Assembly (NCBI GenBank): GCA_965235115.1
Contig: OZ249436.1
Coordinates: forward strand, 37,078,001-37,142,000
Source of the DNA: Laetmonice hystrix
Taxonomy: Eukaryota
Direction of reading: 5' to 3'
Length of the DNA stretch: 64,000 bases
Positions within the stretch are counted from its first letter, which is position 1; every line of letters starts with the position of its first letter. The notes under the pieces were generated by a model. The model searched no databases and was not told where the DNA came from. It was given only the letters and a program-made list of their open reading frames with translations. This document shows, piece by piece, positions 15,053 through 24,327 of this stretch. The position numbers were made by a program, and so were the translations under genes.

Positions 15053-15351
15053 AGGGATGGAAAATAAGGTTTCGTAGATCAAATGAAACACCAGCATTTA
15101 CCTCAGGGCAATAAATGCCACAATTACGTTGTCTGAATGAAGTAATTAACGTGTAACTGCCCGATGTGTGACGCCGCTGCTAGTTCTAACCTTGCTCTGC
15201 TTGTGTGTTCATCACCTCGGACGTTTACAAACGTTGGGACTCCAAACATCGTGTAGACAAGGTCATTGAGCCGTGGTGTGCAGCATTCGGCTCTGATGAA
15301 CACACAAGCAGGTCAAGGTCAGAACCAGCGGCGTGTGTGTTTACCCTCCCT
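15053..15351 (+). mobile_element. TTAA-flanked MITE (Kolobok-like)
   Basis: TTAA|AGGGATGGAAAA...TTTACCCTCCCT|TTAA, with an internal inverted repeat. Paralogue at 9460-9762. Confidence 0.8.
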
Positions 15352-16920: not shown

Positions 16921-18085
16921 TTTAAGTTTGCCGAGGGGCGGTTGAGAAAGGCTCGCGACAGATCTACAGGGGACGGGACATTGTGTGTTCTGTAAACTCT
17001 ACCTTATAGGGCTTGATAACTTGGTGAAAGGTGCAAGATGATCACTTCCAGAATGCTAAAAATACTCTTGTAACATCGATGTTCCACAACTGGTCAAGGC
17101 GTTTCTCCAACGTGACTCACTGAGGCAGATCCAGTAGTGATTTCCAATGAGCAAAAGCTCTAGGGGACACAAACATTTTTGGTCTATGGACCGAACCTAT
17201 ATTTTGAAAGGGGGAGGGGGGTCGTGATCCTGGATTCGCGTCTGATTACCCGTGGAATTTGACACTAGGCGCTATAAGGCTCGGTACGTTGTACTGATTT
17301 GAAATGATCCACGCGTAAGGATAACCTGTGAACGACTTGTTTAGACTTGACCATAAGGCAGGCACTGAAGACTTCTATATTGAAAAACGCCAACACCGGC
17401 CGCTGATGGCACCATACGTCCCAGGTGGTCTATACAGTTGCAAGTAACCGCGTTCATAAAGGCGTGGCTTGTACCAAAGCCATAAACATTACCCACTTCA
17501 GTAGAAAAGCCCTCTGGTAATTTGAAAGCATTAGACTAATGGCTATTCATTCGCCTGGTGTATTTCATGAACTTCTGGAAGGTTACCAATGAATGTCATT
17601 TTTTGTGCATCAAAGAACTCCAACCACCAGTATGGATGGGATTTCCAACAACAATGTATCAGATTACTCTACTAACGGCACCCGCCGGACAACCAAACAC
17701 TTTGGCTTTGAAAGCCTGTCTCGTATCCATATCACATCAATATGGATTAAACGTACTATGCTTGTACATACTGATTTTTTTTTACAAATAGGCCAATCTA
17801 TCCATACGTCAACATACCATACCTTGCAGTAACAGAGTTGATGATCCAAAATGTCGGTATCAGTTTTATCTATAAAGACACATATTCAAGTTCGTCCTGT
17901 TAATGCCTGACTTAATATACTGACAATCCAAAGAAACGCTCAGGTAACATTTTCACCCAGAATTTTATTATACTGACTGACATACAATCAATGTAAATAC
18001 ATCACAAACAGTCTAATAATAGAACCACGACGTCAGTCGTGTTCTCATGCTGTTGATGACGTACGAATCCTGGCCTGAAGGATGC

Positions 18086-18205
18086 TCAGCTATTCCTCCC
18101 GAAGACCAGTGAGAAGCCCAGTCGATGTCCAACTTCACTGTAAGTAAGGCCAGCTTCCACCATGCCCAGGGCGCGCAAACATTCATCTCTTGGTAATCGT
18201 GCCAT
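18086..18205 (-). pseudogene. N-terminal (HTH) fragment of a Tc1-like transposase
   Basis: Translates as MARLPRDECLRALGMVEAGLTYSEVGHRLGFS, matching the typical Tc1 N-terminus MxRL...RAIGMLEAGxTxxEVARRLG. Truncated after about 32 aa and not in the ORF track. Confidence 0.7.
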
Positions 18206-19028
18206 GGTAATACTGATCCAGTGACTGATAGTGGTTTTTTAATGGAGAGTAATCACACCCTACTGACCAACTACTTCCAAATCATGCCACAGTCCTTGCC
18301 CAAACACCTAATCTTCTTCAATCTGATTAACATCAAGACCAGTGAAGTGTATGCGGGGGGGGGGGGGGGGGGGGGGGTGAACATCAAATCATTCCCTGAC
18401 TTGTCTGGTTCAATATAAATTTAAAGGGTAAGTGTCAATTATTTCATATAGATTTTACAAATTAGCGAAACCACTGCTTGTATATAGTCCATAGCACTGC
18501 CTACTTGCCTGATTGGATTTCGTGACTATTTTTTTAAATATTTTAAAAAACCAGCAAATGACGCACGTCTTTTCCTAGACCTGCAGCCTACCTACGCGAT
18601 AGAGTTTTAGCCGGGCGACTTTGCACCCTTTTGACAGAACGCGAGACTATAGCCGCAATCACGTGATCATCTCACCCGTTACAACGCTATGTCTGCAGGT
18701 CAGACATTCCCGATGGCGGAAAGCAGCGTTGTTTATGAGTGTTCTCGACAAGAAATGTGGAATGTGAAGCTGACCGTGCATTTCGCTGCTGTCTGTTTAC
18801 AATACGTATATTAAACTTAGGAAGTATCCTCGGGACAGAAGGTGCATAGATTTTGATGAGGTAAGCGTAAAACCAGGCCGAACCAGGTTGACCTGATTCC
18901 TTAAAAGGAAGCCTGGACCAGTCATGGCCGTTTTGGGGGAAAAAGCATTATGACAGACCTGGACGTTTCTTTTGACTGTCAGTATAGATTCTTTTTGTGT
19001 CTACAATTCAGAGGATTTAGAACTTGCA

Positions 19029-19223
19029 CCCCCTCGGGTACAAGAGGTAAGAATGATCCTCGGCTCCTCACCCCTGGCTCGTGGCGACGAACGAGGCTGG
19101 TATGGAGAAGTGGTCGGATATCGGATCAATGCTGAGTCTTCCGCATGGATTTAGATCATTCCAACACTTCTCTCACTGCGCCTCGCCACTGCTCCCTAAC
19201 TATAGGCCATAAAGTATGTTGTA
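19029..19223 (+). mobile_element. SINE-like family A, 5' half (interrupted by the EnSpm-like element)
   Basis: CCCCCTCGGGTACAAGAGGTAAGAATGATCCTC...GAAGTGGTCG...ATGGATTT...CACTGCTCC, collinear with 55770-55960. Confidence 0.65.
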
Positions 19224-19469
19224 CACTGTTAGAAAAAACAGTAGATTTTACAGAATATTTTGTACAGAATTATTCTGTAAATCATAACAACTGGGAATTT
19301 CCTTTAGTTTTACAGTATATTTGGTTTTAAAAGCGGAATCACAGTTCTTCTACAGAGAAGTTCTGTAAATTTACACAAAACGCCTTAGTTTTCGTAATTT
19401 AATCTATACATTACAGGCAGATTGCGATAAAAGTTGTTTTTTTACAGCAACCCATGGCAAGTTATCGTT

Positions 19470-19537
19470 TTGTGCATGCGCAGTAGGCACTTCCGATAGC
19501 TCCCGGCGCCCATGTTGGATTCTGAGCTAAGGTGAGT
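19470..19537 (+). promoter_or_regulatory. Putative element-internal promoter and first exon
   Basis: TGCATGCGCA (NRF1-like), ACTTCCG (ETS-like) and GCCCATGTTG (YY1-like) are clustered about 250 bp inside the TIR, followed by a strong donor AAG|GTGAGT (GT at 19532). Confidence 0.5.
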
Positions 19538-20905
19538 TTTTTCAAGTTAATCTGATTAAATCGTTGGAAAATCTGTTTTTTTTTCACGAAATCAAAAGGG
19601 GCATTTTAAAAGTAGGGGCCTACAGGATTCGATGATTATTTAACCTCGCTGTGACTGTCCGCACTGGCGGCGTGAGACCGCATAGGCTACTCACGCCCGC
19701 GCGTGCAGAGCCCTCAGCCCGGCCCATCCATGGACTGCCGGGCTAAGCCCAACGGCAACGTGAGCCCAAAGCGGGCACTTGACTCTTGACTTGAGGGACC
19801 CCAATTCTCGCTAAATTGCGGAATGGTTCGGTACCCTAGCCGACATTTATTTAGCCTGAGCCTGTTGTAGTTATGTTTTGAGGGGTCTCTTTTTGAAATA
19901 AGGTGTGTGTCTTTTTTAGTTTTGGACCACATGACGTCATATCCTCGAGGGTTCCCGAATGTAGAGAAGTGGCGCTGTGGTCGTTAATGACCGGAGCATG
20001 GCAGGGTTACCACACAGACGTTGCATCAACGATTCCCCCCCCCCCCCCGTCTGCCTCTGCCGGATAACTGTTATGCCCAGAGCCGAGGTTAGTCCCTATT
20101 TCAAGTGTTCGGGTGATCACCTGTACAGGTGTTATTGGTATTAAAGGTAAACCCCAGGATTCAGGGTGGCAACACATTATAATCCTCAATAGGTTTATGG
20201 GACGAGGAAAAGGCCATTGTTGGCAGAAATGTAGATTTTCATTTTCCCCTTTTTTTCAAAGACAAAGTGCGAGTGGCAACTCTGGTTCAATAGTAGGAAA
20301 CGGTACTAAGGGCTGTGGCTGTCGCCTACTGACTAGATCTACTGTTCGTGCTCTTGTGCGATTTAACGTTTTAACGATTTAACGTTGCACAGGACTGCTC
20401 CTGGGGTAACAACATGCTGTTCATGGCAGTTTCACTGTCCAGTCTGTTGATTCTGTTCATACGGGACAGATAATTTTAATTTTTCTTCAATTGATTCTAA
20501 AAGTTTACCGACGGATTGGGTGTAACTTTAGTTAAATAACTTAGTGATCAGTGCATGGTGATTATCATTCAGCAATTTTAATTATTATTCTGTAAAGTGT
20601 CATGTGCCTGTCACAATAAAATTATAATATAAGCCATAAGGTCAGTCTCTCAATGTGTGTAACAATGTCAGGCCAAGGGAGTAGGCCGCCATTGTTTTCA
20701 GGGTTAGGACTTTAGTTTTGCTTGTTTTAAGACATATAATCTTACACCTTTTACACTTGGTGACAGCTTTCCTTTCTTTTTTGCAGGTTTACCCGAATTG
20801 GAACCCCAGAAACTGGTTCAGCACCCGCCTTGTCTTCAGCATTGGCCTTAGGCTGGGTGAGTTGTAGGTATACTTGTACTGACTGTCACTGTTAGTGTTA
20901 CTACC

Positions 20906-21239
20906 ATGTACAAGTGTCATCATTGTCATTACCGTTCAAATTCACCGAAAAATTATTCACACCACTATGCTATTCATAGGTATAGCAATAAGGTCGAATT
21001 TCCATGTGGCATACCTGGATGTGACAGGGTATTTAGGATTTACGAAAGCTTTAATACTCATCTGTCTCGAGATCACCACAATATTAGGCATTTACACAAG
21101 TCTAAGAGCACTGAGGACGCATCAGGTGGCAGTCCCAGTCAGAATGGTCAGGTTAGGCAGGTAGATCATACAGTGAATTTAACCTGTTCTCACTGTCAAA
21201 AGGTTTGTGACCAGTTCACTGATTTTATTGCAATCCTGG
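20906..21239 (+). CDS. Exon 1 of the transposon-borne 218-aa protein: two C2H2 zinc fingers plus a truncated third
   Basis: ACCATG start. Motifs CHHC..HYAIH and CGIPGC..HLSRDH, then CSHC without its histidines. Phase-1 donor CTGG|GTGAGT. Confidence 0.75.
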
Positions 21240-21617
21240 GTGAGTTTCATGACTTCCTTCAAATGACTTTAGGCTGTGCTACTGTTAGCTTGTTGTCCTT
21301 TGCTTGTACACATGTAGTTTTAAACAGCATAGCCTGTTGTGAGACAAATATTTGTTTGGCAGAAGCTTTAGTGACAGATTGTTGAAAAATGTTTTAGTTG
21401 CTGTCATGTCCTATACTTTTCCGGATGTCAGCCCGGGATGGAGATATGGGTTCGGTGGTTGAGAGTAGAGATAGATACCACAGGTCTATATTCCGGCCAT
21501 ATTGGGAAGCCTCGTTGACTGACCTCTAGTGTTTCAGAAGATTCAGAATTCTGACAGAAACACACATTCACTTAAATGCTTTAACCTGCCGTAATAATTG
21601 TATGTCCTTTATTTCAG

Positions 21618-21795
21618 GGAGGCGAGAAGACATATTCCATGGTCAACATATGTTCTACTTAGTCATTGAAGGGGAAGTGGTAAATGACAAAATACGCACC
21701 TTCCGAGAGGCTGTCATAAGCCTGTTCACGTCTTACTACACTCTATCTATAGAGTACCCACCAGGCGCAGAGGTGACACTGGAGTTTATCCAAAG
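21618..21795 (+). CDS. Exon 2: C-terminal region of the EnSpm accessory (SAMD3-like) protein
   Basis: Acceptor TTTATTTCAG and donor AAAG|GTAAT. Motif FYLVIEG...LFTSYYTLSIEYP...TLEFIQR. Enters in phase 1 and leaves in phase 2. Confidence 0.75.
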
Positions 21796-21982
21796 GTAAT
21801 CTTCAAATTCGAGGCTTGATAATTTGAAATAATGTTTGCTGTTTTAACATGTAAATGTGCCCCTTTGAATTAGATACAACTATAGGCATGCCCATAATGA
21901 CAATCTTCAGATTTCTTTCCTAATTTACATGTACATGTAAAGTTTGGGAATCCCTATTTCCAAGTAATTTCTTTGTTTTTAA

Positions 21983-22475
21983 GGGATACTCAACTGGTTG
22001 CACGAAATTTAGAACATCATTTGGAATAAAAGCATAGACAATTTTGTTCACTCAAAAAATTCATCAGGTTTAAGATTCGGGAAAAGGTGATTTGAGGCCA
22101 TTGAGCCGAGTTGTGATGTCACAAGTGCTCAAGGAAATACAGGTAAAATGAATGGTCCTGATCATTTGTGACAGTATTATAAAACCAAATGTTGTGCAAT
22201 CCACATACAATAACTGCTCTATGGCCATCATTATAGTGGATTGCACAGTGACTTTGCAACAAGGTGACAAAATTATCAGGTCCCTACAGTTGACCTGTGT
22301 GAATGAATATTCATTCAGCACTTGTGACATCACAACTCAGTTATCGGATTGATAGCAATTCCCCAAATGGGCCTTTCCTGATTCTTAAAGTAAACCCGAT
22401 GGAATTTTTTGAGTATATACAAAATTGTATAAAGCTTTTATTCCAAATGATATTTTAAATTTCTTGCAACCAGTT
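21983..22475. mobile_element. Old foldback MITE within intron 2 of the transposon ORF
   Basis: Starts TTAA|GGGATACTCAACTGGTTGCA. About 150-bp imperfect inverted arms, e.g. GAGTTGTGATGTCACAAGTGCT / AGCACTTGTGACATCACAACTC. The right terminus is eroded. Confidence 0.7.
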
Positions 22476-22561
22476 TTTTTTATATAATTTTGCTGCATTT
22501 TCATGTGTGTAGATTGTATTGAACTCTACCTAAGATGAAATTGTTACCCTCAAATTTCCAG

Positions 22562-22706
22562 GGAACTGCTTAGCATTAACCCGGACAGTGAGTGTACGGC
22601 CATGAAGAGCAGCAAGAAGAAAAGAAAAACGGCAGTGGCACCAAGGATAGTGATGCTTCTTCAGCGAATAATGGAGTTCGAGTCTGACTGGAATGGTGAA
22701 AGCTAG
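22562..22706 (+). CDS. Exon 3 (terminal) of the transposon-borne protein
   Basis: Acceptor AATTTCCAG. A phase-2 join gives ...FIQR-ELLSINPDSECTAMKSSKKKRKTAVAPRIVMLLQRIMEFESDWNGES*, with an NLS-like KKKRK. Not in the ORF track. Confidence 0.75.
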
Positions 22707-22792
22707 ATGATAGGCACCGACAGAGAATCTAGGCTTAAAAAGTTTTATTTTCTCTACTCATTTTAACACAATATAAGTGTCTCTGTTTTTTT

Positions 22793-23329
22793 CACTGTTA
22801 CAGGGTTATTGATTGTTCTTTCTGTATTTGCCTCTGAGTTATTCTTGGATGTATTTCTGTGATGCTAACTTCCGATCATTTAAAAATCAGTATTTCAATC
22901 TAAAAATTCTTGTAAAACTTGCATTTTTGGTCTGATTTTAAAAGTTTAATGTGCATCTTGGAACATCGTTGTAGTTCTCCTTAATTCTCATTCAGGAGTA
23001 CCTGTCATGTTTCAAAGCCTCTTTCAATAGGTGACTAGGGTGCTTGTAGATATCTTCTCGCTTTCACCAGTCCAACAGCAAGGTGTTATGCATGAAGACC
23101 TCCAAAATATTCTGTTTTTACTGTGACAGGGTTAGCACTTTAATTGTTCTTTTCTGTATTTGCCTCTAGGCAGAGTTATTCTTGGATGTAATTATGTGAT
23201 GCTAGCTTCCGATAATTTCTAAATCAGTATTTCAATCTAAATGTTTTGGTAAAACTTGCATTTTTGGTCCGATTTTAAAAATTCAGTGTTCATCTTGAAA
23301 CATCGTTGTAGTTTTCCTTAGTTCTCATT
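22793..23329 (+). repeat. ~200-bp direct duplication in the element's 3' region
   Basis: 22793-22993 and 23120-23329 align, e.g. GAGTTATTCTTGGATGTA, AAATCAGTATTTCAATCTAAA and AACATCGTTGTAGTT. Confidence 0.8.
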
Positions 23330-23375
23330 GAAGATTCATCAGATTTAATACCCTCAAACTGGCCCAGATATTGCC

Positions 23376-23799
23376 CTTGCTAGCCAACATACCTGGTTTA
23401 AATATACCCGTATGTACACAGTATATGTACAGGCAATATTATTGTTGCCAAGTGATTTTGTGGCCTTTGCTAGCCAACGTACCTGGTTTAAATACATGTA
23501 CACAGTATCTAGGCAATATTATTGTTGCCAAGTGATTTTGTGGCCTTTGCTAGCCAACGTACCTGGTTTAAATACATGTACACAGTATATGTATCTAGGC
23601 AATATTATTGTTGCCAAGTGATTTTGTGGCCTTTGCTAGCCAACGTACCTGGTTTAAATACATGTACACAGTATATGTATCTAGGCAATATTATTGTTGC
23701 CAAGTGAATTTGCGGCCTTTGCTAGCCAACGTACCTGGTTTAAATACATGTACACAGTACATGTATCTAGGCAATATTATTGTTGCCAAGTGATTTTGT
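23376..23799 (+). repeat. Tandem array of five 80-90-bp units
   Basis: Unit TTGCTAGCCAACGTACCTGGTTTAAATACATGTACACAGTATATGTATCTAGGCAATATTATTGTTGCCAAGTGATTTTGTGGCCT, with periods 90, 80, 86, 86. Confidence 0.95.
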
Positions 23800-24165
23800 T
23801 GTTTTTTAATAAATAATACTTTTAAAATACAGTATATGGTAGTTGAGTCGATTTTATGCTGAAATGGTACAGCTGTAATTTTATAGAAAGTGCCTGCAGC
23901 AGAGTCCCCAGCAGTTCTGTGGTTTTACAGGGAGTTGTAAATGCAAATTACAAATCTTTCTGTACATAGCATAATACAGATTACTTGTTTAAATACAGAT
24001 GATCTGTAATTGTGATAAAATTCAGTACTATTTAATAACAATGAAATTGTAACTTCTGTTCACAGATTTCTTTATTTTTAACTTCAACTGTAAAAATACA
24101 GAAAGTGATGGGGACTCTGCTGCAGGCACTTTTCTGTTATTTTACCAAAGAATTTTCTAACAGTG

Positions 24166-24327
24166 TAGGACCTACCTAGCTATGTCCATGCGACTGGAAA
24201 AACCTTCGCCATTTTTCGAGAGTCGGAGATGGGTTTTTTCTCACTTCCTCCACATCATCGTCACCTGTGACTCGGGGGTGAACCAGTTGGAAGGTTTTAT
24301 CGTCGCCCTGAATGAGGCTGTAATAGA
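24166..24327 (+). mobile_element. SINE-like family A, 3' half
   Basis: GCCATTTTTCGA...TTTCTCACTTCCTCC...TCGCCCTGAAT, collinear with 55960-56160. Confidence 0.65.

Follow-up and report, generated by a model that had tools for sequence, protein, structure and literature searches.

A chimeric reading frame in a deleted EnSpm/CACTA element of Laetmonice hystrix, probably a neutral by-product of internal deletion

The target-site duplication of CACTA elements is 3 bp long in plants and 2 bp in animals, and the product of the maize derivative En-I102 is reportedly itself a chimera of two ORFs. En-I102 is a deletion derivative of En/Spm whose product is reported to be aberrant and to compete for sites on the element (bioRxiv 10.1101/2024.06.24.600476); it has genetic and transcript support, whereas the element presented here is known from sequence alone. 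Drosophila KP, which encodes a 207-aa repressor, is a small deletion derivative that retains the N-terminal zinc-binding part, has no catalytic core and can outnumber the full-length copies (PMC7776569, PMC12393704). The second of these sources also describes repressor-type P derivatives with one dominant junction and no full-length parent (PMC12393704). In maize, tnpD lies within intron 1 of tnpA, and the shorter message, from which tnpD is spliced out, is about 100 times more abundant (PMC2613891).

The element described here resembles maize dSpm/I, soybean Tgm1-7 and truncated SmTRC1, for which the same internal deletion, kept ends and mobilisation in trans are described (PMC2613891, PMC1636069), and its transposase ORF apparently has the maize layout. 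An animal element, it differs from plant En/Spm in its CACTG ends, its duplication of 2 bp, the C2H2 fingers at the N-terminus of the transposase and the SAM domain of the second protein, as well as in the in-frame fusion of two genes by the deletion. The DNA-binding domain of KP is complete, and its binding and repression are proven, in contrast to the half finger array and second-gene tail found here. Since expression, binding and repression of the element's protein are candidate properties only, the element is not filed as a repressor.

The window is a stretch of 64,000 nucleotides of contig OZ249436.1 (assembly GCA_965235115.1), and all coordinates without further label refer to it. The features are as follows.

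19222..19223, no strand: target-site duplication TA, left copy; the right copy is at 24166-24167
19224..24165, + strand: non-autonomous EnSpm/CACTA element, whole, 4,942 bp, delimited by terminal inverted repeats (TIRs), TA duplication, empty-site contigs and aligned copies
19224..19236, + strand: 5' TIR, 13 bp, CACTGTTAGAAAA, starting CACTG
19512..19531, + strand: predicted end of the first leader exon, with upstream ATG; donor at 19532, 9/9 consensus letters, the best of the region
20787..20856, + strand: predicted second leader exon, donor at 20857
20906..21225, + strand: transposase-derived part, residues 1-106, by homology to the N-termini of P0001-P0003
20915-20977, + strand: finger 1
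21005-21076, + strand: finger 2
from 21185, + strand: first half of finger 3, cut before its histidines
21224..21225, + strand: deletion junction; the second-gene side starts at 21224
21224..21239, + strand: tail of a native second-gene exon, residues 107-112, with phase-1 donor; homologous exons in L080 and L102
21618..21795, + strand: penultimate exon of the second (SAMD3-like) gene, by comparison with the sister family on C11 and P0004
21992..22475, no strand: palindromic MITE-like segment in the second intron, arms 21992-22033 and 22434-22475
22562..22706, + strand: last exon of the second gene, with basic patch and stop; aligns with the last exons of L080, L099, L103, L108 and P0004
23373..23806, + strand: tandem array of 80-90-bp units in the 3' region, copy number varying between copies
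23808: AATAAA polyA signal, 3' region of the element
24153..24165, - strand: 3' TIR, CACTGTTAGAAAA inverted, TA adjoining

The element is a member of the non-autonomous EnSpm/CACTA class. The short TIRs start with CACTG at both ends over 13 bp, the target-site duplication is 2 bp long and is accompanied by a clean empty site, and residues 1-106 of the fused frame represent a coding remnant related to Transposase_21 (tnp2). The EnSpm identity proposed in the earlier note, which was made from the letters of the sequence, is thus borne out by the ends, the duplication and the transposase homology. A search of the genome with the 28 nt of the 5' end gave 14 places (none with the reversed-pattern control), and the 30 nt of the 3' end also gave 14 (control 0). 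Two-bp duplications are present in 11 of the 12 copies having both ends (nine TA, one CA, one TG). The ends of the intact relatives start with CACTGT, and those of the intact families begin CACTGTAAAAAA. Short motifs of the TACAG type, candidate subterminal repeats, are grouped near both element ends, and an inverted repeat of 30 nt lies inside the element at 23887/24103. Contigs from all three runs of one sample connect 19219 directly to 24164, skipping a span of 4,944 nt that equals the element plus one duplication; these clean empty-site contigs mean that the insertion is polymorphic or that an unfilled paralogous site exists. Upstream of the element, inverted-repeat pairs of 40 and 30 nt, at 15175-15333 and 17916-18986, are probably other small mobile elements.

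At the DNA level the 218-aa chimeric frame is confirmed. The three segments (334, 178 and 145 nt) join into 657 nt without a stop, across two GT-AG introns, one of 378 nt in phase 1 and one of 766 nt in phase 2, reproducing the three-segment coding sequence described before. The two C2H2 fingers ascribed to it are present, with canonical patterns beginning at residues 4 and 34; Pfam zf-C2H2 reports an E value of 5e-4 on the frame, below that model's cut-off. The third finger is indeed cut, although nine residues past CSHC and not directly after it. The intron phases do match, but this is no new coincidence, as sister families share intron places and phases; the gain of a new intron was rejected on the same ground. 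Since the introns are inherited, the frame at the break is the sole chance event, at approximately 1 in 3. Random deletions simulated on L080 give an exon-to-exon in-frame fusion in ~3.5% of cases, a value of rough size only, given that the end of the first exon was approximate and the phases did not close.

Segment 1 is 52-59% identical to the N-termini of P0001-P0003 across 98% of its length, with E values for residues 1-106 of 1.6e-33 against P0002 and 2.4e-28 against P0003. These proteins, of 922 aa (P0002) and 926 aa (P0003), hit Transposase_21 (PF02992) with E values of 1e-4 to 2e-4, which fall short of the curated cut-off. Full-length related transposases carry four N-terminal fingers, of which the element keeps two and half of the third. 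Residues up to D106 can still be aligned with the full-length proteins; at the point where the window switches, all four close transposases carry finger 3 on through its histidines. The match to P0003 is confined to its residues 1-115, in agreement with the proposed loss of the catalytic core.

The homologous exon of the intact relative L080 ends at the same phase as the second-gene tail at the junction, and that of the sister family L102 has the same start. The penultimate exon is 56% identical to the sister family on C11, with equal intron positions, and residues 120-214 of the chimera align with P0004 at 36% identity (E 3e-16). Segment 2 alone found no match in Pfam and none among 19 longer candidates. 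The motif KKKRK was considered as a new feature and rejected, the basic residues at that place being inherited from the second gene. The look-alike clusters of the second ORF of L080 are named SAMD3-like (scores 0.95 and 0.92, names assigned automatically), and the model of P0004, a homologue of the second protein, features an N-terminal SAM fold with a middling best Z of 7.4, most of the top rows being SAM domains. Comparison of P0004 with solved sequences gave no match, and Foldseek gave none at E 0.001 or better. In the relatives, the second gene thus appears to encode a SAM-domain, SAMD3-like protein, as judged from cluster names and predicted fold. The two genes of the intact relatives have the architecture given in the earlier note, a transposase plus a SAMD3-like accessory protein. 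The chimera keeps only the C-terminal ~110 residues of the latter, for which the domain model is poor (pLDDT 58, best Z 3.9); the SAM domain and the well-folded middle domain are absent. A side result is that animal EnSpm elements apparently carry a SAMD3-like second gene with the layout of maize tnpA. Literature searches for EnSpm or CACTA with SAMD3 or sterile alpha motif gave no relevant paper by title and opening of the abstract, although repeat databases may record the association.

The intact relatives L080 and L082, which belong to other families, have a transposase frame of 908-917 aa followed by the second gene. They encode the two halves of the chimera as separate proteins, in support of an in-frame fusion by internal deletion, and the breakpoint, previously placed near 21225, was correct within 2 nt. 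One copy of the family, L076, keeps an intron piece and the uncut 70-nt native exon, whose terminal residues are those of segment 1; L076 has sequence in common with the window only from 21224. The 21-mer upstream of the junction is carried by 13 of 13 copies of the main type. It could be argued that the 218-aa frame is native to the family, as a splice product or an ORF, since the searches gave no full-length parent for direct comparison. This is very improbable, and was rejected, because the join lies inside an exon without a splice site, L076 shows the second-gene exon uncut, and the histidines of finger 3 continue in the four transposases. Among the contigs listed, one ends at 21225 in two of the three runs (X2 and X3) and one starts at 21224 in all three, with a step up in depth; this break may be a fork to a less-deleted parent without a copy in the assembly, or a one-base variant of a T run. 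Record 11 of X2 and record 23 of X3 (~2.6 kb) represent a related element which shares 19663-19753, 21784-21810 and 23870-24145 with the window; its depth is roughly one ninth of that of the family, and no copy of it was located in the assembly.

The assembly contains at least 16 loci of the family: 14 with the coding region, one copy of 3,346 bp (C6) without segments 1 and 2, and one 165-bp end (C18). The last two were rejected as parents, being a further-deleted copy and a mere end. The window element aligns end to end, or nearly so, with 13 other copies; the mean pairwise difference between copies is 0.6%. The palindromic MITE-like segment is present in other copies and partly deleted in L074. 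No full-length member was found among these loci. Outside the family, the best matches to the fingers are 29-48% identical, and the best transposase candidates are 39-49% identical to P0003 (49 of 129 candidates scored); the 172 nt specific to L076 occur once in the genome. The count of copies with the same fusion, proposed earlier, gives 13 of the 14 coding copies with the main junction and L076 with a different one nearby. Apparently intact EnSpm elements with a SAMD3-like second gene are seen in other families, at L080 (G000:C8, about 22964840-22975760), L082/L083 and L100/L101. The transposase may have been supplied by a parent missing from the assembly or by one of the intact families.

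Nested insertions, each in a single copy, are present at window positions 21160 (L075, 2,736 bp, short inverted ends), 21318 (L077, 343 bp, inverted ends, TTTAAA site) and 19789 (L065, about 410 bp, 8-bp duplication); several DNA-transposon families are recently active here. The sister copies L070 and L074 conflict at two linked sites (window 21554-21560), which suggests gene conversion or template switching among copies.

The main junction in 13 of 16 loci, with no parent found, is the repressor-type pattern, and this counts against the explanation preferred below. In the rival explanation, the fusion would be expressed when the leader donor is skipped, and the catalytically dead protein would damp the family in trans, in the manner of KP or En-I102. 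Such a role, which we consider unlikely though not far-fetched, would have the fingers bind the element ends and the C-terminal domain bind partners. The derivative does dominate a family whose parent is absent from the assembly, and 8 of the 13 main-type copies are in frame. As in KP and En-I102, transposase translation is interrupted and the core is absent; interruption together with retention of part of the finger array are the two marks of putative P repressors (PMC12393704). Against this, two of the four fingers are left, giving a candidate DNA-binding capacity only, and the SAM domain and the well-folded middle domain are lost.

The arrangement of the leader also bears on the production of such a protein. 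The donor at 20857, which lies 49 nt upstream of the ATG, matches the one at 21240 in all nine letters and, to judge from this match, could skip the finger segment altogether. In L080, a strong donor is found 13 nt before the transposase ATG and acceptors just before the second ATG, suggesting that, on the maize pattern, the transcript of the second gene has the transposase ORF within one of its introns. The predominant message of the deleted element would then lack the fingers and encode a peptide of 44 aa starting at the upstream ATG; the chimera would require a minor splice form and would lie behind an upstream frame of 42 codons. The same-letter upstream donor and this frame could limit production of a repressor. 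In L080 itself, the leader exon and its donor form a tandem triplicate ahead of the transposase ATG (L080 2370-2920). In three runs of one sample, no joint was seen at either predicted intron, with full cover and DNA-like behaviour.

The frame is intact in 8 of the 14 copies. The broken copies comprise L072 and L073, which share a frameshift, two with stops, one with a 2.7-kb insertion, and L076, with a frameshift. Substitutions were counted in 15 copies, leaving out the tandem array, 19941-20259 and the L076 junction columns. The coding sequence carries 18 missense, 2 nonsense and 6 silent changes (expected silent share 20%), corresponding to a ratio of amino-acid-changing to silent change of 0.85, without transition correction (neutrality p = 0.81). 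Ratios up to 0.3 can be rejected (p = 0.014), whereas 0.5 cannot (p = 0.17). The substitution density is 4.0% in the coding sequence versus 2.4% and 2.7% in the introns, and 5 of 19 indel events fall in the coding sequence (expected share 34%, p = 0.63). Branches common to at least two copies carry only 4 missense changes, 2 silent changes and 1 frameshift, and have low power. Broken frames among sibling copies, named in the earlier note as evidence against its proposal, are seen in 6 of 14, with the neutral ratio, whereas 8 of 14 remain intact; the functional role itself is not supported. L072 and L073 have one frameshift in different flanking DNA, so the frameshifted lineage still transposed. 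Together with the C6 copy, which lacks segments 1 and 2, this indicates that the frame is not needed in cis. The absence of visible constraint also speaks against damping in trans; young copies, however, drift in any case, so the neutral pattern does not rule on an incidental trans effect.

The same data bear on domestication, which had been suggested as a possible fate. In the window copy the frame is unbroken and comes with a leader, a basic patch and a polyA signal, as might be the case for a gene being recruited by the host. A single fixed, immobile locus under purifying selection would be expected in that case; instead there are 14 young coding copies with intact TIRs, an empty allele, a ratio of 0.85 and six broken frames, and we give this explanation next to no credence.

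Breaks in finger 3 are seen more than once, which is the chief result against the explanation preferred below. P0021, from another lineage, is the sole one among the 150 listed matches to residues 1-106 (of 176 passing) that also has the C-terminal domain of the second protein (E 3e-12). It is 33% identical to the chimera and so represents an independent fusion, keeps two fingers and also switches at the start of finger 3. Its source is an unannotated contig of 906 bp, a length that favours short fusions; two-finger fusions to the second-protein C-terminus are seen in P0021 and P0155, on public contigs of 906-918 bp. The second junction of the family, at L076 2705-2876 (G000:C10:4294204-4294375), is single-copy with the frame broken upstream. 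It lies 17 nt from the main one on the left and about 170 nt on the right, and cuts finger 3; the fusion would be in frame with use of the donor at 21203 (7/9 consensus letters) and out of frame with use of the donor 4 nt further. That three junctions (main, L076 and P0021) all fall in finger 3 favours a repressor. However, with left breaks 17 nt apart the main and L076 junctions may share one intermediate, and the P0021 contig can show short fusions only. A wider version, in which animal EnSpm elements repeatedly spawn finger-3 breaks (twice in this family, once in an unrelated lineage) whose expressed, dominant-negative products let the derivative exceed its parent in number and silence it, in a KP-like self-limiting circuit made by the fusion of two transposon genes, is distinctly improbable.

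In four other families of the same genome, the final exons of the second gene are retained with no fusion to fingers. In L103 (5007-6216, G000:C4:32059009-32060218), a transposase core fragment lies ~350 nt before the last three second-gene exons, with a stop before the join. L113, L102/L112 and L099 are CACTG-ended; L113 has only the second gene, with stops, and the others the last exons.

As discussed above, the fused frame is best regarded as a neutral by-product in a preferentially mobilised deletion derivative, with a probability of roughly 0.7. A full-length animal EnSpm consists of a transposase ORF, with four fingers and the catalytic core, followed by a multi-exon SAMD3-like gene, the leader exon probably splicing over the former to the latter as maize tnpA does over tnpD. 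One internal deletion took out the sequence between mid-finger 3 and the final 16 nt of the second gene's third-last exon; the break is in frame by chance, and the inherited introns complete the frame. Both ends were kept, so the derivative would be mobilised in trans, and its numbers have very recently risen to 13 copies or more. The frame would be a passenger, with mobility independent of it, and it undergoes neutral decay. The limits of the element, its copy number, the derivation of both halves, the junction, the inheritance of the introns and the neutral pattern of substitution are established by the data, and we infer the leader splicing, the source of the transposase and the absence of a selected effect of any protein made.

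Read as a by-product, the element offers a clean, dated example of how a deletion and inherited introns create a new multi-exon frame, whose neutral decay can be followed in 14 copies. If the product were a repressor, self-regulation of the KP and En-I102 kind would extend to animal EnSpm elements, and the fusion would provide an assay for a little-studied SAM-domain accessory protein.
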